From positions 1 to 64,000 of the IMG/VR virus record IMGVR_UViG_3300013006_000023: 64,000 nt of DNA, one strand, 5' to 3'. Position numbers and translations under genes: made by a program. The stretch is from a virus. Numbering within the stretch: the stretch's first letter is position 1; every line of letters begins with the position of its first letter. Below are positions 4,001 to 33,367 of the stretch, in pieces. The notes beneath the pieces were generated by a model. The model had not been told where the DNA came from. It searched no databases and was given only the letters and a program-made list of their open reading frames with translations.

Positions 4001-5185
4001 TTAAAATATTTTGTTGTTTAGAGAATTCTCAATCCTTTCTTTTAACTTAGAACTGATGATGCTCTCTAAATATTTATTGGCTTCAGCGTAATTTTTTTGT
4101 GATATATTGTGAATAAATTTTACTATATCTGAAGATTCCTTAATCTTCTTTTTCTTTTTCTTTTTTCTATCTTCTTCATCTTCACCTTTAATAGCCCCTT
4201 TTATTTCCTTAACTGCACCGGGAGCAGCACCACCAATGAGACCACCAAGAGCAGCGGCACCAGCCGTTCCACCCATTAACCCGCCAGCTACGGCACCAAG
4301 AGTACCTGTGGCCAAGCCTTCCTTAGCTATAATCTTTTTTTTCTTTTTCTTTGACTCTTCCATCTCATTATTATTTATTGGCTTATTACCATTTTTCTGC
4401 TGTAATTTTTTATTAATAGCTTTAGCAGCTAAATCTGTCCCAGCTTGTAAAGCTATTTGTCGTGCAATTGCTGGGGCTAGTGCGTTTGCTCCTGCTGCTA
4501 AAGCTCCTACAAATTCTTTTACAACTTCTGGTTGCATTGACTCCATAGCTGTAAGAAGATATGTATCGAGAGTATCATCATCTTTTAATCCATACTTCTT
4601 TTTAATAGTTTCTCTATCCTTGTCAACTGAAGTCGATCGGCCGTAAAAAATATCTTGTGCCGCGGGATCAGCTTTTATCTTGTTTATTGTGTCTTTGGAT
4701 AATGATGTGGATGTCGACGAAGATGGAGCCACTGGCGAGGATGCAGTTACTGGTGATGCTGGTTTGGTGGCAGTTCCTGCAGTGGGAGTAGTTAACACAG
4801 GCGGGGTTGCTCCTGGAGCTGCTGCTGTGGGTGTGGCGGGTGATGCAGCTGTGCGTGCAGCAGGTGATGATGCAGAACTATTGGACAGCATGTTAATCAC
4901 AGAGTCAGGTATGTCAATATTAAATCTTTTTTTGAAAACATCTTTTGCAACTGCTGGTCCCACTTGTTTAATAACAGGAGCTAATGCGTTAATCAAAGAG
5001 CTGCCTATTTGTCCTGCAGAGCTACTAATCTTAGAAATGGTATCTGGATTTTTTGATACAAATTTACCAACTTGTTTGCCAAGTTTGTTTGCTTTGTACA
5101 ATGCTGCCCCACCAAGAGTTGCAGCAAGAGCTCCTTTGCCAAGCGCACCAAAGTTTACTTCGTTGACCAAATTACCATTCTTCAT
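4001..5185 (-). CDS. prohead core / internal head polyprotein (low complexity, Gly-zipper segments, poly-Lys tracts)
   Basis: Between gp21 and gp22; repeated x-x-E sites (LVNE, VVKE, IAKE, KIKE); the C-terminal 45 aa look like small T4-like prohead core proteins. Confidence 0.5.
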   Translation of the reverse strand: MKNGNLVNEVNFGALGKGALAATLGGAALYKANKLGKQVGKFVSKNPDTISKISSSAGQIGSSLINALAPVIKQVGPAVAKDVFKKRFNIDIPDSVINMLSNSSASSPAARTAASPATPTAAAPGATPPVLTTPTAGTATKPASPVTASSPVAPSSSTSTSLSKDTINKIKADPAAQDIFYGRSTSVDKDRETIKKKYGLKDDDTLDTYLLTAMESMQPEVVKEFVGALAAGANALAPAIARQIALQAGTDLAAKAINKKLQQKNGNKPINNNEMEESKKKKKKIIAKEGLATGTLGAVAGGLMGGTAGAAALGGLIGGAAPGAVKEIKGAIKGEDEEDRKKKKKKKIKESSDIVKFIHNISQKNYAEANKYLESIISSKLKERIENSLNNKIF

Positions 5186-5853
5186 ACAGTTTTAAGCACT
5201 TTGAAGAAGCTAATAATCTGTTCCTTTAAATAGTCCTGAACATCTTTTCTGGGCAAATTCAAAAGTGAACGCTCGAAATTACTATAAACTTCTTCAAGAT
5301 ATTTGTCGTCTTTCAATACAAACTGTTTGCTTTCTAGAATTCCATTAACGAAAGCTTTGGGGCACGACGGATCAGCCACACAATCAATGGCTACCAGTCT
5401 CATGTCTGTAACACGGTTGATACCACCTGCTTCTTCATTCAATTTCCCTAGAGCGCGGCTTGACATGCCCACTCTAACACCATCATTGATTAAAGATCTG
5501 ACAATCTGACCCATGGGGGTGGACAATACTTGGCTCCTGCCCATGACGTAATTGTTTTCAACTTTAAGATTTGTAACAATGTGACATGCTCTCTCTAAAT
5601 CTACCTCAGCGCTTGTGGGATGATTCAATTCACCCATGGCTCTTTTGGGTTCAACCATTTCCTTTACATAGCGGTTTACTTCCTTGACCATGTCATCTTT
5701 AGAATAAATTCTTTGGTTTTTATTAACCGTTTCATACATCATGTATGGCCCTTGAATAAATAATTTGGCCGCTCCTTTAGAATTTTTTTCTTCTAGAATA
5801 TATTCAAATTGTTCTTCTGGTGCAGGTGTTTCGACTAATAATCTATATGCCAT
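5182..5853 (-). CDS. gp21: prohead maturation protease (gp21-like)
   Basis: NKNQRIY, AMGELNHP, TPMGQIV, GMSSRALG, DCVADPS. Confidence 0.95.
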   Translation of the reverse strand: MAYRLLVETPAPEEQFEYILEEKNSKGAAKLFIQGPYMMYETVNKNQRIYSKDDMVKEVNRYVKEMVEPKRAMGELNHPTSAEVDLERACHIVTNLKVENNYVMGRSQVLSTPMGQIVRSLINDGVRVGMSSRALGKLNEEAGGINRVTDMRLVAIDCVADPSCPKAFVNGILESKQFVLKDDKYLEEVYSNFERSLLNLPRKDVQDYLKEQIISFFKVLKTV

Positions 5854-21713: not shown

Positions 21714-22454
21714 TTATTTATTGCCAGTTATGATTCTATTCTTAATATTTTGCTCATATTTCTCATCATACATAATGTCCTTCTGTGTTTTGAGCAGTCT
21801 CTCCATGGTTTCAATGTTACTAGTATTAAGAACACTCTCATCACTATCCACTACACCGCCTTTTTCATTTACGTACAATTTTATCATTTCAACGCGTTGT
21901 TCAGGTGTACCAAATATTTCAATGATTGGAGGTCTATCATCTTTTGCCATGAAGGGACAAACGCCTGTGGAAGCCATTGTATGGCTGATGGCTTTGAATA
22001 TATTATCAATTTCCTTTATGAAAGTCTCATCAATTTCACGATCAGCTCTTTCGACCAACTTCACAGGTGCAACTTTAGTTATGGGCAGAAAGAATACTAT
22101 GTCAATGCTCTTCATGCTCTCCTGTATTAGAGGTATGCATTTCTTTAGAAAGTCATGATCAATGTCTGAGGTTTTTTTATCTTCAGCCCAAATAGAATAA
22201 ATCAAATTATCTAACGGGCATCTGTCAAAAATTACATTATCGCTTTTTTCTGTTTTCTGCAAATCGTCAATTAAGCAATTCAAGATCTTCCACTGACCAT
22301 GTTGATCAACAGCTTTGTTAATGTTGAGTTTTTCTTCCTTAATCACTGCACGATAAGATTCATTTGACCTCTTGTACATGGGCCAATTTTTAAGAAAATC
22401 GTCCACAAGAGTCGATTTGCCCTGACATGCTGTTCCTGATATTGTGATTCTCAT
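21714..22454 (-). CDS. AAA_28/NadR-type P-loop nucleotide kinase
   Basis: ISGTACQGKSTL, IFDRCPLD, DIVFFLP. Confidence 0.7.
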   Translation of the reverse strand: MRITISGTACQGKSTLVDDFLKNWPMYKRSNESYRAVIKEEKLNINKAVDQHGQWKILNCLIDDLQKTEKSDNVIFDRCPLDNLIYSIWAEDKKTSDIDHDFLKKCIPLIQESMKSIDIVFFLPITKVAPVKLVERADREIDETFIKEIDNIFKAISHTMASTGVCPFMAKDDRPPIIEIFGTPEQRVEMIKLYVNEKGGVVDSDESVLNTSNIETMERLLKTQKDIMYDEKYEQNIKNRIITGNK

Positions 22455-25127: not shown

Positions 25128-25820
25128 TTACACACCCCAAGAAGTTCCACCAAAAAGATTGCCATAACCTGTAGAAACATTTGATCTGCCCACATTTGCA
25201 GGTCTGGGTTGACCAGGCGCCCCACCAGCTGGAGGTGGGTTCTTGATCACATTAGTTAAATCGACGCCGGTTGTTTCTTTGACTTGTTCTAAAAAGTCTA
25301 TAGATTGGTTGACTTGTGGTATGTGGACTGGCACATTGTTAATTTCAACTGTATTGTTGTTTTGTTTTGTAACGTTATCATTTGCAAAGCAAACAATTGC
25401 AGAATTTTTATCATGTTCCCACACTTCAACCTTGTCCACCCAGCATCTGTTGTTAGTAATGCCTCTCACATGTCCATCAGCCACATCAAAACACCATTCG
25501 GCCGTCCTTTCAATACCTACACCTTTGGTCATTACGCGTAAATCTGCAGCACCACTGGCATGTAATTGTTCAAATAGAGGCAGCAATGGATCATCACCTG
25601 AAATGCATAAGGTATGGTCAAATTGCTTTTCAAAAACAGCCTTTAATTCCTTTAGTCCACCAAAGTCTACTACCCAATTCTTATCATCTAATGCATTGCA
25701 ACCAAACCAAAGCTTTGCAACTAACCTGTATCCATGTACAAATTTGCAATGACTACTAGCTCTCCATTGTCTAAATGCACAACTTCCAAGTTCAAAAATC
25801 TTAGTAGATGAAAAATTCAT
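25128..25820 (-). CDS. queD: 6-carboxy-5,6,7,8-tetrahydropterin synthase with C-terminal extension
   Basis: HCKFVHGY, WVVDFGGLK, FDHT, VWEHDKNSA. Confidence 0.88.
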   Translation of the reverse strand: MNFSSTKIFELGSCAFRQWRASSHCKFVHGYRLVAKLWFGCNALDDKNWVVDFGGLKELKAVFEKQFDHTLCISGDDPLLPLFEQLHASGAADLRVMTKGVGIERTAEWCFDVADGHVRGITNNRCWVDKVEVWEHDKNSAIVCFANDNVTKQNNNTVEINNVPVHIPQVNQSIDFLEQVKETTGVDLTNVIKNPPPAGGAPGQPRPANVGRSNVSTGYGNLFGGTSWGV

Positions 25821-27138: not shown

Positions 27139-27798
27139 ATGTTAAAGAATAAACGTAATTTACCGTATGCCAATCATAACCAGCCTGTAACTGAAGAAGA
27201 GAAGAAAGACATTATTGATAGAGCTGCCAAAGCATATGAAGCATACATGGATGCATTGGGGTATGACTGGAGAAATGATCCTAACAGCAACAATACACCA
27301 CATCGCGTGGCAAAAGCTTTTGTTGAGGATTTTGCATGGGGGTGTTACAGCCTGCCACCCAAAATCACAGCTTTTGATAATGTAGACAAATATGATGGCA
27401 TAGTTGCACAAACAAACATCAAGGTCACTTCATTATGCTCACATCATCATGCACCATTTACCGGGTTTGCTCATGTTGCCTATATACCCTCTAAATCTGG
27501 CAAGGTCATTGGGTTAAGCAAATTGAATCGCGTGGTTGATTGGTTTTCACGCAGACCACAAGTACAAGAGAATCTCACAATGCAAATTCATGATTATATC
27601 AACATTATTTGCGAGAAGAATAACGGTGTTGCAGTAATGATTGAGGCAGGCCATACTTGTTGCGCAAACCGTGGCATAAGACATGATTCAACAATGAGAA
27701 CTGCCAGAATGTCTGGCACGTTTTTGGATAACAAGGATAACTCTCGCGCTGAATTCTACAAGTTTGTCGAATTTGCTCAGAACAGAAAACTCACGTAA
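27139..27798 (+). CDS. folE: GTP cyclohydrolase I
   Basis: TPHRVAK, SLCSHHHAPF, GLSKLNR, RRPQVQE, HTCCANRG. Confidence 0.95.
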   Translation: MLKNKRNLPYANHNQPVTEEEKKDIIDRAAKAYEAYMDALGYDWRNDPNSNNTPHRVAKAFVEDFAWGCYSLPPKITAFDNVDKYDGIVAQTNIKVTSLCSHHHAPFTGFAHVAYIPSKSGKVIGLSKLNRVVDWFSRRPQVQENLTMQIHDYINIICEKNNGVAVMIEAGHTCCANRGIRHDSTMRTARMSGTFLDNKDNSRAEFYKFVEFAQNRKLT

Positions 27799-28200
27799 TC
27801 ATTGCTTGTTCACATCAATCACTGCATTCAATTGTTTCAGAAAAGGTTCACCCACAAGTATTGGATCTTCATTTTCTGATCGATCTGCTATGCTGAACGG
27901 TATATTCTTATAATCTTTACCATTTATTCTTATGTTAAGATTCACAATGGGTCTGTCTTCCTTTACACCGCTGCCAATGTGTATCTTTATATCACCACTC
28001 TTTGGTGCTTGGAATTTCTTATTCCCAACTGTTGTAAATGATACAGTCTCACCCTCTTCCGATACATCCACACCATGCAGAACATTGTATGCCTCATTAC
28101 CACTATCAATTTTTGCTTTAATCTTGCCAAGCCCTTCAACGTCAATATATTCATTAACACCCAATATAACCTTATTATAATATTCTTTGAAATTATCCAT
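27799..28200 (-). CDS. retropepsin-like aspartic peptidase (RimK-associated family)
   Basis: KAKIDSGN catalytic motif, EDRP, FSIADRS, ILVG. Confidence 0.75.
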   Translation of the reverse strand: MDNFKEYYNKVILGVNEYIDVEGLGKIKAKIDSGNEAYNVLHGVDVSEEGETVSFTTVGNKKFQAPKSGDIKIHIGSGVKEDRPIVNLNIRINGKDYKNIPFSIADRSENEDPILVGEPFLKQLNAVIDVNKQ

Positions 28201-28268
28201 ATCTTTTGCCTGTGGCTTATTCTAATATATTTATTGGTTGCAGTGACATAAAAAGATTAAATAATTAC

Positions 28269-28907
28269 ATGTTTGCAAGAGATTACAACACATTAAATGA
28301 ACTGTATGATACGAAAATTATCAAAGAAAATGTAGGCCTAGGCCCGCTAGCAGACAACAACAATACTACACCTAGTAACACACAAGCAGTAAGAATTAAG
28401 ATGCCACCCAAAAGAACCTGCGGTGAAAATGAAGAGCATTGTGCTTATGCTGCACAAGGTTGTGAATGTGGTGAATGTAGTGAATGTGCACACTCTGAGA
28501 GCTCCTCAGAAGATTGTGAAGGATACGATCCATCATCATACGATAGTAACGGTAAAATGGCAAGACAATTGCTTTTCAGAGTTCATAAACTTTCTGCCAT
28601 GCTTCACGATTTATTAAACAATAAAGACAATATTGAAGCCTGGGTGTTGAGTAAAATTACAAATGCACATGATCAGATAGCATCAGTATTTGGTTATGAA
28701 GATTATGAAGCTGCACTCAATTCAAATCATGGAATGTGTGGTGATAATTTAGAAGAGAATAATGAAGAAGAGCTTTTTAAGAGAATTGATGCAGGTGGAC
28801 TTGACATTCTTGATTTATTAAAATCAAAACTTAGCAGAGAATCAAAAGAGACATTAGAGAAGGTGTTGCTTGAAACAATTATTTTGTTAGAGAAGAAGTC
28901 TAAATAA
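28269..28907 (+). CDS. putative internal head protein with Cys-rich insert
   Basis: Start moved to ATG 28269 (TAAATA 5 nt upstream); leader ends IIKE; contains a GKMARQLL...WVLSKIT helical domain. Confidence 0.6.
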   Translation: MFARDYNTLNELYDTKIIKENVGLGPLADNNNTTPSNTQAVRIKMPPKRTCGENEEHCAYAAQGCECGECSECAHSESSSEDCEGYDPSSYDSNGKMARQLLFRVHKLSAMLHDLLNNKDNIEAWVLSKITNAHDQIASVFGYEDYEAALNSNHGMCGDNLEENNEEELFKRIDAGGLDILDLLKSKLSRESKETLEKVLLETIILLEKKSK

Positions 28908-29553
28908 GTTTCTTATTAAATAGATCAAAAATCCTTGGATCAAACTTACCTATAATTTGCGCTATATATTCTTTTCTCTGTTGGTCGTTGGCCGATTTGT
29001 ACATGTTCCTTAGTTCTGTTGCACTGGATATGCTCTTTCCACCCACATTGAATTGCACTGTGCCAGGAGAAAAAATGTATCCATGTCCGCCATCTTGCTT
29101 GAAGGGTACCATATCACTTAGACTTACAAATGGCTGAAAATATGTAGGGCGGCCGTCTCTTGTTACACCAAATTTAAATCTTGGATCTTCCTTCATATCC
29201 TTCTCTCCAACAGCATAAACTGCTTTGGCAACATTCTGGTCATAATCATTTAAAATTTCTATGGGTTTGTAAGGTTGCTTAACCTGCACTATCTCATGAC
29301 TGGGTACACCTGCTGCTTCCATGATTTGTTTTTTCTCTTGAAAGCTAAATGGATATCTACTTGCATCGTCTGTCTTCTGTGGAGCATCTGAGGTAGCTAT
29401 AAAAAAATCAGCTCCTGGAAATTGCTTCTTGGCCATATCAAAGAATTTCTTGTGACCAATGTGAAATGGCTGAAATCTGCCTGGAAAAATAACTATAAGA
29501 TTATTTTTTTGGTGCTGCAGCACTTCACTAATATATTGTTTAAATGTTTTCAT
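28900..29553 (-). CDS. HIGH-motif nucleotidyltransferase (cytidylyltransferase/NMNAT-like)
   Basis: FPGRFQPFHIGH, YPFSFQEK, AVGEKD, SATELR; leader MKTFKQYISE. Confidence 0.85.
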   Translation of the reverse strand: MKTFKQYISEVLQHQKNNLIVIFPGRFQPFHIGHKKFFDMAKKQFPGADFFIATSDAPQKTDDASRYPFSFQEKKQIMEAAGVPSHEIVQVKQPYKPIEILNDYDQNVAKAVYAVGEKDMKEDPRFKFGVTRDGRPTYFQPFVSLSDMVPFKQDGGHGYIFSPGTVQFNVGGKSISSATELRNMYKSANDQQRKEYIAQIIGKFDPRIFDLFNKKLI

Positions 29554-30755
29554 GCTCTTGGTGTCAGCACATTTGCTGAGCCTTCCATGCCATAAGGCGG
29601 GTTTGTTTGATAGTTCATTCTATTACCTACTGTGTTAATATTCTTCAACTCACTTGTAACATTGCTCTCTTCTTCAGATTTTTTCTGAGCAAACTTACCA
29701 GCTTCTTTACCAGTAATAAAATTGCCGGTAATCTTTACTGGGTTATTCGATATGGATGCATCGCGTACTACTATACCTTCTTGTGTATTCAAAGAGCCAA
29801 GGTCTGATGTAGCCGCATCCTTAATGGCCTGTCCAAGTGAGATAGTAGCTTGATAAAAAACAGCACCATCAATTACTGTTTGCATTGATTTTTCATCATT
29901 AACATACAAATCCAATGGCATGCTGCTCGAAACATTCTTATAATTCTCCAAACTCATAGCTGCTATTGTTCTTCCGGACTTAAGCTTAATTTTTTCATTG
30001 CGCGGATTTTTTGCTGTTGCAAGCCATTCACTAAGAGGCTTTGTTACTATATTTTTTGTATTGTAAGCAACTGTAAAAGGACTACGTAATGCAACGTTTA
30101 GATTCATATTATTTAACTTTATAGTGAACTCATGCTCCACATCAAAACCTTGTTTCTTTGCTATGGGATTTATTTTATCTATCAATGTTAACAAAGCATT
30201 TTTATCAAATGATATCTCTCTGGATGCTCTGCTCATACTGCCACGCACCGGGCTCTTCACACTAATAATTTCATTCAACCCATGAATTGCAAGAAAATTA
30301 TTTGCATATCCAACCACATTGGTCTCACCTTTAACATATTCCATGTTAAATAAAATTTTATCATTGTCCCACATGCCCAACTTCTTCAGATCCTGCTCTA
30401 TAGAAGGAATTGCTGTGTTAAAGATATTTAAAACAGTGGCTCCTATGGTGAGCATTCCATGACCTGCCGGAAACCTGCCAGCAAGTCTGCCCACTGTTAC
30501 ACCAGCCACATCTTCAGGCTTATTTGAACCTCTATCAAGAGCAAATTCTTTTTGATCTTCTTCATTGTTGATGAGTCTAATGGATGCATTAATGCCATCA
30601 ATCTTTAATGAAGCAGGTGTCTTAGCCAAGCTTTTTATTATTTTATTAAAGATGTTAATTAAATTTTTACCAGTATTTGCTTCTGGTAGATCAAATGGAT
30701 GTGCCATATGCCCTGCTACCCCGCCTTCTAATAAGAACTGCTTAAACGTTATCAT
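29550..30755 (-). CDS. RNA-ligase-like covalent nucleotidyltransferase with capsid-targeting-like leader
   Basis: Motif I SLKIDG, NMEYV, motif IV QEGIVVR, motif V PVKITG; leader MITFKQFLLE. Confidence 0.6.
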   Translation of the reverse strand: MITFKQFLLEGGVAGHMAHPFDLPEANTGKNLINIFNKIIKSLAKTPASLKIDGINASIRLINNEEDQKEFALDRGSNKPEDVAGVTVGRLAGRFPAGHGMLTIGATVLNIFNTAIPSIEQDLKKLGMWDNDKILFNMEYVKGETNVVGYANNFLAIHGLNEIISVKSPVRGSMSRASREISFDKNALLTLIDKINPIAKKQGFDVEHEFTIKLNNMNLNVALRSPFTVAYNTKNIVTKPLSEWLATAKNPRNEKIKLKSGRTIAAMSLENYKNVSSSMPLDLYVNDEKSMQTVIDGAVFYQATISLGQAIKDAATSDLGSLNTQEGIVVRDASISNNPVKITGNFITGKEAGKFAQKKSEEESNVTSELKNINTVGNRMNYQTNPPYGMEGSANVLTPRA

Positions 30756-31668
30756 TATTCCTTTTTTTACGCGACTTATTATTCAACAAATGCATTAAAA
30801 TTTTCTTTACATCTTGAGGGGATTCCAGATTCAAATTGCTTGGCGCAAGGTCATAAGATTGTAATTTAGGTGTTATGCGATATAAGGCAGTTCTTATACG
30901 AATAGGTGCACCTTTGTATGTGATGCTTCTGCTGCCGTTTGGACCTAATCTACATTCTATTGTGCATATGCCTTTGAATTCTGGTACACCTATGCCTTGA
31001 ATATCTGTACCCAAATAGTAAAGTCCCAACCCACCAATTTGAATATAATAACAATCCTTACTATTGTAGTGTTTGATAATAGTACTCACATCATTATTTT
31101 TTAAACGCACGTTAAGATCACTTAGTAAACCTTCCTGAGCTGCTTTGTCCCATGCTGTTACTGCTATCTTTCCTGTTGGTGCACGATACTGTAATGCAGA
31201 ATGTAATTCAATTGGATCACACTTCTTTATATATTCTATGTATGCTTGAAGTGCAGGTAATCTGCTTTGTGCTGCTTTTGTTACAAAGGGCAAAACAGCT
31301 GAATCTACACTGCTTGCATCAACAATTTCTACTTTACCAGTTGTTGCATCCATTCGCACAGATGTTGAACCCATTTGAGCATCCCTATTCATCTTCACTT
31401 CAACGTTGAACGGTGCACCATCTGCTTCAATACGCACATCAGCTCCGACATTACTAAAAGCACTTCCTCTGCGATTTATCTTGACTTTTGATAATGAAAA
31501 ATCCTCAATAACACTCTGAATTAATTGTGTAATCTTATGCTCATATACTGCACCACCCATGCCAGCCTTCTCCCTGTGCAACACATCATGAGCAGGTAAG
31601 AGTGGTACCTCTCTTGCGAAAGTCTCAGCAAGGTACACATCACTCAAACTTTTGTAATTTTTACTCAC
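30742..31668 (-). CDS. PD-(D/E)xK restriction-like endonuclease
   Basis: GAVYE...GADVRI...FNVEVKM; YNSKDCYYIQIG. Confidence 0.6.
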   Translation of the reverse strand: MSKNYKSLSDVYLAETFAREVPLLPAHDVLHREKAGMGGAVYEHKITQLIQSVIEDFSLSKVKINRRGSAFSNVGADVRIEADGAPFNVEVKMNRDAQMGSTSVRMDATTGKVEIVDASSVDSAVLPFVTKAAQSRLPALQAYIEYIKKCDPIELHSALQYRAPTGKIAVTAWDKAAQEGLLSDLNVRLKNNDVSTIIKHYNSKDCYYIQIGGLGLYYLGTDIQGIGVPEFKGICTIECRLGPNGSRSITYKGAPIRIRTALYRITPKLQSYDLAPSNLNLESPQDVKKILMHLLNNKSRKKRNNDNV

Positions 31669-32105
31669 GACTTGACATCATTACTATATCTCTTCATTGC
31701 AGATAAAATTTGTTTATACTTTGCCATAAAATTATCCTCATTAATTGTATCAACAAATTGCTTAAAATGAGGATTGTCCAATCTCTCTGGATTATCTTCA
31801 TAGTTTAAGTTCTGACTTATGGCCTCTTGCAAGCCTTCTCTAATGTTCTCAACATTTTCACGTGTAATGGTAGTTGTAAAGAGTGTGTCAATAGAACCAG
31901 ATGGTATATTCATTATCAAGGCTTTTGCGAGAAGCCTGACTAGATCCACGTATCCTTCTGGTGGCAGAGCCTGTGGTGGTGTCTTTATCTGCGGATTGAC
32001 TGCCGGATCTTCATTTGGAGCAGGGGTAGTTGCATCCTGGGGGTTAGGCTCTCCAACAGCTTCAAATACTGACATGTATGCTTCAATTTTTTTACTAAAA
32101 CTCAT
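31665..32105 (-). CDS. putative internal head protein
   Basis: Leader MSFSKKIEAYMSVFE; TATAAATA 5 nt upstream; first gene of a four-gene operon. Confidence 0.55.
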   Translation of the reverse strand: MSFSKKIEAYMSVFEAVGEPNPQDATTPAPNEDPAVNPQIKTPPQALPPEGYVDLVRLLAKALIMNIPSGSIDTLFTTTITRENVENIREGLQEAISQNLNYEDNPERLDNPHFKQFVDTINEDNFMAKYKQILSAMKRYSNDVKS

Positions 32106-32118
32106 ATGTTTATTTATA

Positions 32119-32689: not shown

Positions 32690-33121
32690 TCAGTATAAAT
32701 GTTTATTTTGTTCTATCAAGCTTTTTGGTGGCCGGCCAATTCTTACATTCATTATACCATTATAATATTCATCGCTTAACAATACCCCCCTGTTTATTTG
32801 TTCCTTTATTTCAAAATATGCCAACTCCCACTTTGATCCACATATTTTAATTATTTCAAAAGTAAAGCTGTTCTTTCCAAGCTTTATAATGTCTTCATTC
32901 AACTCAACTGAGCTGCTTGTATAAGCTCTCCAATCTGTTTCCTTTACTTCAATTCTCTTGTTCCTCTTGCCCTTGAGAGGTTTTCTCTTGTATTTCGTTT
33001 TGCACTGCTTCTTACCTATATACTTTCTGTTATTAGTATTATTTGTAATTTCATATATAAAGCCAAAAGCCTCATCACTTAATATGACATTCTCTCTTAA
33101 AATCCAATGACCTGTATCCAT
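32690..33121 (-). CDS. GIY-YIG-fold nuclease-like protein
   Basis: GFIYEITN...KYIGKK...DWRAYTSSS...YYNG. Confidence 0.7.
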   Translation of the reverse strand: MDTGHWILRENVILSDEAFGFIYEITNNTNNRKYIGKKQCKTKYKRKPLKGKRNKRIEVKETDWRAYTSSSVELNEDIIKLGKNSFTFEIIKICGSKWELAYFEIKEQINRGVLLSDEYYNGIMNVRIGRPPKSLIEQNKHLY

Positions 33122-33130
33122 AAAGTTATA

Positions 33131-33367
33131 CTATAAACCTGCAAAAGATCTTCTTTTTAATTTTGTTTTTTTCTTTTTCTTGCCAAACGGCCATCTAGAA
33201 TCACCAGGTGCATATGCTAAATCGTTTTGTGAAGGGAATTGATTGCCATGGCTGCCGGCTGGGCCACCAGCACCTGTACCAAATACACCTTCAGCTCCTC
33301 CGGCGACATTCATATCTTCTAATAGTGCTCTATTAAATGCGTCTTCAAAATTTAGTATGGATTTCAT
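33131..33367 (-). CDS. 78-aa protein mimicking the mature N-arm of the major capsid protein, with basic tail
   Basis: GNQFPSQNDLAYAPGDSRWP versus capsid GNQFPSQNDSAYAAGDARLP; leader ends LLE; C-terminal KKKKKTKLKRR. Confidence 0.8.
   Translation of the reverse strand: MKSILNFEDAFNRALLEDMNVAGGAEGVFGTGAGGPAGSHGNQFPSQNDLAYAPGDSRWPFGKKKKKTKLKRRSFAGL

Follow-up and report, generated by a model that had tools for sequence, protein, structure and literature searches.

The locus described here raises the question of whether four overlapping genes of a virus encode proteins that travel inside the phage head and are injected into the next host. It lies in a window of 64,000 nucleotides (nt), the first 64 kb of the 107.6-kb single-contig virus record IMGVR_UViG_3300013006_000023, which by sequence is that of a distant T4-like myophage. 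The four genes, on the minus strand, specify proteins of 146, 308, 401 and 217 amino acids (aa). A first reading of this DNA (hereafter the sequence-only reading) had noted that all four begin with leaders ending in hydrophobic-x-E, namely SVFE, YLAE, FLLE and YISE, and all of these endings are present. The answer that we favour, with somewhat better than even confidence, is that the genes form a late operon whose products would be loaded into the head, trimmed by a protease and injected, a pair of enzymes being part of this cargo. The products would be brought into the prohead by N-terminal targeting leaders, a gp21-type protease would trim them there after (L/I/V)-x-E, and the trimmed products would remain inside the DNA-filled head until they pass, with the DNA, into the next host. 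A ligase-like nucleotidyltransferase (401 aa) and a HIGH adenylyltransferase (217 aa) would constitute a conserved enzyme pair among the cargo, and the 308-aa protein would be a strain-specific cargo, encoded in a hypervariable slot and carried behind a leader of about 35 aa. This packaging reading has good backing in the logic of the sequences and in one published proteome, but it is unproven.

The operon comprises the following elements (the four open reading frames, ORFs, were verified):

31665..32105, minus strand: 146-aa gene, first of the four
30742..31668, minus strand: 308-aa gene, with a GTG start
29550..30755, minus strand: 401-aa gene
28900..29553, minus strand: 217-aa gene
32111..32118, minus strand: late-promoter-like box TATAAATA, 5 nt 5′ of the ATG of the 146-aa gene and directly after the stop codon of the upstream gene

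Leaders of the operon products

The sequence-only reading had likened the leaders of the 401- and 217-aa proteins to the T4 capsid targeting sequence, MKTYQEFIAE (PMC8442874), and the likeness holds at the decisive residues. In T4, residues 1-10 of IPIII are sufficient for targeting to the head; residues 4 and 7 of the leader set targeting, residues 8 and 10 set processing, and gp21 cleaves after L/I-X-E (PMC9026906). Both leaders have F/Y at residues 4 and 7, L/I at residue 8 and E at residue 10. Among the 117 predicted proteins, these two are the only ones with the pattern aromatic-x-x-aromatic-[LIV]-x-E at residues 4-10 (background 2.3e-4 per residue). The leaders of the 146- and 308-aa proteins are of another, longer type. 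A protease able to act on such sites would be at hand, together with a T4-type head set, since a family search of the window identified Gp23 major capsid protein, T4-type scaffold (gp22, T4_CASP), Portal_T4 (gp20) and a gp15-like protein. The elements concerned are:

30726..30755, minus strand: capsid-targeting-like leader MITFKQFLLE of the 401-aa protein; the predicted cut after E10 would give the mature N-terminus GGVAGHM
29524..29553, minus strand: capsid-targeting-like leader MKTFKQYISE of the 217-aa protein; predicted cut after E10
5182..5853, minus strand: T4 gp21-type prohead protease (Peptidase_S77, PF03420; match at 3e-33), the proposed processing enzyme

Leader-like starts are also seen outside the operon. 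Synechococcus phage Syn9 gp184 (3408-4556 of contig L086), encoded by the gene after the DUF6267 gene, starts with MKKFSAFLSE and has the exact T4 pattern (F4, F7, L8, E10). At 27799-28200 of the window (minus strand), a retropepsin-like aspartic peptidase (RloA-like, Zn_protease family) starts with MDNFKEYYNK...GVNE, and its homologues start with MQTFKEFYNK, another capsid-targeting-like leader. At 33131-33367 (minus strand), a 78-aa protein has the leader MKSILNFEDAFNRALLE, then NVAGG..GNQFPSQND, which resembles the arm of the capsid protein after a predicted cut between ..CFE and ASNVAGG, and then a poly-Lys tail. Its counterpart in a relative (L080) has the leader MITFNQFCSE, of the type found in the 401-aa protein, and the 78-aa protein is likely to be a basic internal head protein. 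A convergent Cys-rich ORF of 233 aa (28206-28907, plus strand), conserved in 27 related loci, overlaps the operon end by 8 nt; its true start is likely to be at 28269, which gives MFARDYNTLNELYDTKIIKE, again a leader-like start.

The predicted cleavage junction in the 401-aa family

The family of the 401-aa protein numbers more than 1000 homologues from metagenomes, to none of which a Pfam family is assigned, and has 570 representatives at 50% clustering. Of the 206 members with any sequence upstream of the invariant GGxxGH(M) element, 203 have E directly in front of it and 204 have L, I or V at P3; P4 is hydrophobic. This junction is the same whether it stands behind a 10-residue leader, a leader of 30-45 residues or 200-900 residues of other domains. 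A further 22 members start directly at M-GG, these starts being preceded by Shine-Dalgarno-like sequences. The L-x-E motif is thus found only where an upstream part needs to be removed, which indicates that the conserved outcome is a free Gly-Gly N-terminus; HxxHxxD, also conserved, follows it. A leader of the double-glycine bacteriocin type, cut after GG, was considered and rejected because of the 22 members that start at M-GG.

The PF03420 protease is encoded in all of the 10 contigs with 401-aa family members that were tested. Peptidase_S77 was found in 5 of 5 tested contigs with leaderless M-GG forms, so that the comparison of these forms with absence of the protease is neutral.

In the M-GG forms (alignment A5; for example in L092, L093 and L098), the ligase-like and HIGH domains are in one chain, and a conserved C-terminal segment, ..LEExSxMxGGxVxG, recalls the cut site of the capsid protein. 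By analogy with T4 Alt, this segment could be a propeptide at the C-terminus.

Cultured relatives and a virion precedent

Cultured phages provide both a relative with the junction and a precedent for packaging. Microcystis phage Mel-JY01 encodes a 639-aa fusion of the HIGH and ligase-like parts, in which IAE is followed by GGLGGHMNHPFD (hhalign 96.8%). A cytidylyltransferase was detected by liquid chromatography-mass spectrometry in CsCl-purified virions of the T4-like cyanophage S-SZBM1 (PMC9146016) and, likewise, in those of the T4-like cyanophage S-CREM2 (PMC10665884). Homology with the 217-aa family was found for the S-SZBM1 protein, S-SZBM1_140 (hhalign 95.7%), which starts with MRFRQFIIE. 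Its leaderless DUF6267 neighbour, the product of gene 141, is absent from the list of 30 virion proteins. The capsid-targeting and cleavage interpretation put forward earlier is therefore retained, on the basis of the gp21-type protease, the family-wide (L/I/V)-x-E junction before GG and the report of a homologous transferase in virions.

A DUF6267 protein followed by a coupled ‘cytitidyltransferase’ is present in 383 records of T4-like cyanophages, and the two are fused in S-PM2. The model of the 401-aa protein (see below) matches this S-PM2 fusion in Foldseek (E 6e-5). At the level of profiles, the DUF6267 hidden Markov model (HMM) gave no match at E <= 0.1 with the 401-aa protein or at E <= 10 in the genome. 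Alignment by hhalign of the 401-aa family with a four-sequence DUF6267 alignment (E 0.063) was not significant, nor was that with S-SZBM1 genes 139, 141 and 142. Since the profile comparison is not significant, homology with DUF6267 is probable only at the level of the fold. Our literature search found no papers on Mel-JY01, DUF6267 or Syn9 gp184.

Expression as a late operon

The sequence-only reading had placed one box at the head of four overlapping genes and called the whole a late operon, and both statements survive: box, ORFs and overlaps are where they had been placed, the overlaps between consecutive genes being, in order, 4 nt (GTGA), 14 nt and 4 nt (ATGA). The exact octamer TATAAATA is not enriched in the window (5 found, 7.1 expected). 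Its core, TAAATA, is present within 16 nt upstream of the start in 33 of 117 genes (0.9 expected), mostly at a spacing of 5-6 nt, and the genes so preceded include that of the prohead protease and a large number of those for head and tail proteins. Of the 19 related contigs that were examined, nearly all have the box in front of their 146-aa homologue; in L009 it is 13 nt upstream. Enrichment of TAAATA at starts and conservation in relatives, together, indicate that these genes belong to a late operon of a genome-wide promoter class; by these sequence criteria, the assignment of the four coupled genes to a late operon is supported.

TATAAT-like boxes, with a spacing similar to that of TAAATA, precede many other genes of the genome, and in the genome as a whole no Shine-Dalgarno sequence is visible at gene starts. 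The position of TAAATA at 5-6 nt before starts and the lack of a visible Shine-Dalgarno sequence point to largely leaderless mRNAs.

The enzyme pair

All the motifs quoted from these proteins are present: the 401-aa protein contains KIDG, EGIVV and VKITG, the 217-aa protein GRFQPFHIGH, and the 308-aa protein ADVRI..NVEVK. Searches of Pfam, PHROGs and NCBIfam assigned no family to the 146-, 308- and 401-aa proteins, save for a short match to PHROG_26930, of unknown function. Neither the operon DNA nor the 401- and 308-aa proteins had a match among 50,697 phage records in DNA and tblastn searches. Two motifs are of particular concern here:

30594..30605, minus strand: motif I of the 401-aa protein, K51-I-D-G, with the candidate nucleotidyl-lysine; invariant in the family, and the point where the ligase alignments start
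29452..29463, minus strand: nucleotide-binding motif H31-I-G-H34 of the 217-aa protein, within GRFQPFHIGH; a sequence motif

The AF2 model of the 401-aa protein, built from 20 sequences, has a pLDDT of 77, with residues 1-15 and 351-401 disordered. Its top matches with the exhaustive structural aligner VIA are ATP-dependent DNA and RNA ligases and capping enzymes: a Prochlorococcus ligase (Z 6.7), African swine fever virus ligase (5.6-5.8), archaeal RNA ligases (4.9-5.3) and T4 Rnl1 (4.8), along with Trl1, REL1, Naegleria ligase, LigD and the PBCV-1 capping enzyme. Opposite motif I (K51), the alignments begin at residue 99 of T4 Rnl1, 27 of the Chlorella virus ligase and 481 of LigD, which we take to be the catalytic lysines; for Rnl1, this agrees with a PDB entry entitled ‘T4 RNA Ligase 1 (K99M)’. 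The residues of motifs I, III, IIIa, IV and V, namely K51-I-D-G, N137-x-E139, F154, E326-G-x-V-x-R and K341, do not vary among 20 diverse members of the family. Motif I has the form KxDGxN, as in RNA ligases, and not KxDGxR. The earlier description of the 401-aa protein as ligase-like is supported by the predominance of ligases among the structural matches, by their start at the presumed catalytic lysines and by the invariance of the motifs. Judged from the model, the protein has the probable fold of a ligase-like covalent nucleotidyltransferase, of a new virus-only family, and K51 of KIDG is likely, from its sequence context, to be the nucleotidyl-lysine.

As for the 217-aa protein, the earlier assignment to the HIGH nucleotidyltransferases agrees with its GRFQPFHIGH motif and with its match to PF01467 (CTP_transf_like; 3.2e-9, 37.5 bits, cut-off 21); it also contains a second motif, ISSATELR. 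With the family profile, PPAT (1e-6) and NMNAT (4e-6 to 6e-4) are matched to a similar degree, and the matches are confined to the first ~75 residues. Among the NCBIfam models for NMNAT, the highest scores are 17-29 bits, far below the equivalog cut-offs of 127-449. On these sequence grounds it is a HIGH-motif adenylyl/cytidylyltransferase of the PPAT/NMNAT branch.

The two enzymes appear to be linked. Their homologues are fused in both orders in related contigs, and a HIGH motif is found in 58 of 108 multi-domain representatives of the 401-aa family; such frequent fusion in either order suggests that both act on one pathway. Fusions with the 401-aa part first mostly retain an L-x-E site at the domain boundary, inside a segment resembling the leader of the 217-aa protein, so that many of these ‘fusions’ are probably polyproteins. 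Amidase_2, GNAT and SET are among the other domains fused in relatives, and in the extensions of long multi-domain relatives only CTP_transf_like, Amidase_2, GNAT and two weak DUFs were detected. The activity of the pair is most likely nucleotidyl transfer or ligation, putatively on a polynucleotide end, as with RNA ligases, or on a nucleotide cofactor. More specific roles proposed before, in RNA/tRNA repair or in restoration of nicotinamide adenine dinucleotide (NAD), found no support: neither a Pnk-like kinase of the AAA_33 type nor Nampt was found in the record, whose completeness is 51% according to CheckV, and absences from it have to be read in that light. A P-loop kinase of the AAA_28/deoxynucleoside-kinase type is encoded at 21714-22454 (minus strand), behind a TATAAATA box. 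Since AAA_28 includes the NadR ribosylnicotinamide kinase, a link between this kinase and the NMNAT-like enzyme is possible.

A variable slot and its long leader

The gene for the 308-aa protein occupies a slot which, in related contigs, contains between the 146- and 401-aa homologues proteins of 370-535 aa. These belong to at least six unrelated groups and have only a leader of ~35 residues in common, usually followed by a second (L/I)-x-E site. In our window this leader is:

31567..31668, minus strand: long conserved leader of the slot protein, about residues 1-34, YKSLxDVYLxE..VPLLP, with 50-75% identity across unrelated slot proteins

The 308-aa protein itself starts with YKSLSDVYLAE..VPLLP. 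The YLAE at which the sequence-only reading had ended its leader is there, and the actual leader is the whole conserved module of ~35 aa common to unrelated proteins. The same long leader also precedes the E before GGAAGHM in distant 401-aa homologues. Such movement between unrelated proteins is the behaviour of a targeting module.

In its body, the 308-aa protein is an orphan: two homologue searches among 5.8 billion proteins returned its own 90% cluster only. This body has no relationship to the proteins that fill the slot in relatives, and none of the latter has a Pfam family. The 308-aa protein had been proposed to be a PD-(D/E)xK nuclease. The motif exists, D77 and E90-V-K92 being on predicted strands 76-82 and 85-91, in a compatible but unreliable order of secondary structure, and a language-model search of the Atlas gave one lead, a cluster at rank 11 in which 14% of the members have R-HINP1I. 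Searches of Pfam, PHROGs and PDB gave no nuclease match, and the model (pLDDT 37, from two sequences) is unusable. From its motif, this cargo may be a PD-(D/E)xK nuclease. The idea that it would cut unmodified DNA and spare phage DNA containing 7-deazaguanine found no support. Four genes of interest here are present (QueF-like, 101-1021; QueD/PTPS, 25128-25820; FolE, 27139-27798; QueC-like, 44038-44784), and no TGT/DpdA transglycosylase was found in the 107.6-kb, half-complete record, so neither the DNA modification nor the sparing of modified DNA is established.

On the other side of the slot, the 146-aa protein has an amphipathic N-terminal leader ending with V-F-E (residues 13-15), a linker rich in Pro, Gln and Ala, and a conserved C-terminal domain, PPEGYVD..LAKAL. 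Homologues whose leaders end in hydrophobic-x-E are found at the same position in 21 related loci; as far as sequence conservation goes, it is a conserved member of the operon. An Atlas search with this protein was uninformative.

A second variable spot is seen in the same block, between the homologues of a 188-aa protein and of the 146-aa protein, where an extra gene for a protein of 300-380 aa (MADxxISQL..) is inserted in L002 (3140-4057), L007 (2912-4051), L010 (3405-4304) and L011 (2460-3368). At 32690-33121 (minus strand) of the window lies a gene for a protein with a SegE-type GIY-YIG endonuclease domain (PF19835, 2e-28). This protein is found at the same position, with ~70% identity, in 37 related loci, and so is unlike a mobile homing endonuclease.

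Points against packaging, and other explanations

Taken as a whole, the earlier interpretation is supported for the late operon, the leaders, the ligase core and the transferase, and is not supported for the nuclease, the sparing of modified DNA and the roles in RNA repair or NAD restoration. Several observations weigh against the packaging reading or against the enzymatic identity of its cargo. Loading, cleavage and injection are all inferred for this phage. The structural matches of the 401-aa protein with ligases are modest (Z 4.5-6.7, thus below 8), and concern residues 50-210 only, with ~105 residues aligned; it is because of these Z values that we call the fold no more than probable. With Foldseek, one of the checks that had been suggested, the model returned phage and giant-virus RNA ligases from BFVD and no match below 1e-3 from PDB. 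For the 401-aa family, the searches showed no sequence-level link to a known ligase family or to DUF6267, and its profile gave no match at E <= 10 with PDB sequences. Among the sites, VLHRE, the second one in the leader of the 308-aa protein, fits the motif poorly, and P3 in the leaders of 146-aa proteins is not always L/I/V. Lastly, many relatives have no N-terminal leader, namely the M-GG forms and the cytidylyltransferases of P-HM1 and S-CAM3, which means that packaging is not universal for the module.

One could therefore ask whether the proteins are simply unpackaged late or auxiliary metabolic enzymes of the cytoplasm, concerned with nucleotides or cofactors, whose N-termini are amphipathic helices or reflect codon preference at translation starts. 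We regard this as unlikely, although it accommodates the leaderless members, M-GG starts among them, and the location of the DUF6267-cytidylyltransferase pair of T4-like cyanophages, beside mazG and a primase-helicase gene and not beside head genes. Detection in virions could also be due to carry-over of abundant proteins, as the authors of the S-CREM2 study state (PMC10665884). Against it, the junction is kept even behind 200-900 aa of upstream domains, and the constraints of leaderless mRNAs do not apply to the 401- and 217-aa genes, which are internal and coupled. In addition, unrelated proteins have an identical type of 35-aa leader, and the late box of the operon is like that of head and tail genes.

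A different possibility accepts loading and cleavage, and adds to them. The freed Gly-Gly end, together with the invariant HxxHxxD, could complete an active or metal site, so that the 401-aa protein would be a protease-activated zymogen of a new class of nucleotidyltransferases. This enzyme, and the adenylyltransferase fused or coupled to it, would be silent in the cell that produces them, would become active only in the capsid and the next host, and would serve there, ready-made from the first minute, in counter-defence or end repair. We consider this distinctly unlikely.

It might also be that the proteins are loaded and cut as parts of the prohead core or scaffold, and then degraded or expelled instead of being injected as working enzymes. 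The T4 core proteins gp22, gp67 and gp68 are indeed cut at the same motif, and the 146-aa protein has no enzyme motif and a low-complexity linker resembling those of scaffold proteins. Yet neither enzyme varies in its catalytic motifs over more than 1000 homologues, a cell-wall hydrolase domain (Amidase_2) is part of the same chain in relatives, and each of the two enzymes has only one or two predicted N-terminal sites, as in the T4 internal proteins and Alt and unlike scaffold proteins. This makes the scaffold explanation very unlikely in our opinion.

Least probable of all is cutting of the junction by self-cleavage or by a host protease, solely to expose an N-terminal Gly-Gly needed for activity and with no packaging: it would fit with the free GG end being the conserved feature, obtained by an M-GG start or by a cut after E, and with the distant DUF6267 proteins, in which H6, H9 and D/E12 keep this spacing from the protein's own N-terminus, but P3 and P1 conform exactly to the T4 gp21 motif, a gp21-type protease is encoded in each of the 10 contigs tested, and the 217-aa and slot proteins have similar sites with no GG.

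Significance and comparison with known systems

If head loading, trimming and injection are what the leaders of this operon serve, then T4-type capsid targeting would not be peculiar to coliphage T4 and its small internal proteins, and aquatic T4-like phages in general would use it to carry cargo. It would deliver a two-enzyme module known from well over a thousand metagenomic proteins and, as DUF6267 plus cytidylyltransferase, from most T4-like cyanophages, and along with it a cargo that is specific to the strain and quickly exchanged. Two widespread phage families of unknown function would become accessible to functional tests, and a simple rule, (L/I/V)-x-E before a domain, would predict injected proteins from metagenomes.

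According to its model, the 401-aa protein probably shares the nucleotidyltransferase core fold with RNA ligases (T4 Rnl1, Rnl2/REL1, archaeal Rnl3, Naegleria Rnl5, Trl1), DNA ligases and capping enzymes, and it has the order of elements found in ligases: motif I, E of motif III, aromatic residue of IIIa, EGxV of IV and K of V. It differs from them by ~110 residues inserted between motifs IIIa and IV, by having neither an OB domain nor any known C-terminal ligase domain, and by the N-terminal GGxxGHMxHPFD element, which is unique to its family. The 217-aa protein has in common with NadM and bacterial PPAT a GRFQPFHxGH motif, which is the NadM-type first motif, and ISSATELR, whereas its C-terminal half resembles neither family and no Nudix or Nampt partner is present here.

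The closest parallel to the pair is that of the T4-like cyanophages (T4-like gene clusters 71 and 190), in which a ligase-like gene is likewise followed by a coupled HIGH transferase gene, fusion occurs in some phages and the transferase has been seen in the virions of S-SZBM1 and S-CREM2. DUF6267 has the same layout as the mature 401-aa protein, with H6, H9, D/E12, KxDG near residue 50 and a C-terminal EGxV..K. Unlike that protein, DUF6267 proteins have no GG start and no leader.

With respect to packaging, the best comparison is with IPI, IPII, IPIII and Alt of T4. These have the same 10-residue leader, with aromatic residues at 4 and 7, I/L at 8 and E at 10, and in both systems a gp21-type protease is encoded, expression is late and a conserved leader precedes cargo of diverse kinds. 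The diversity of the T4 internal proteins is comparable to that of the hypervariable slot of the 308-aa protein, and in T4 also an enzyme, Alt, is among the cargo. The cargo families found here are unrelated to the T4 internal proteins and Alt, a second leader type of ~35-45 aa with two sites is present, some relatives are polyproteins with internal sites, and the system here is known from sequence. Capsid-targeted cargo as such is known from T4; what is new is the cargo families, the second type of leader, the polyprotein forms and the conserved free Gly-Gly end.

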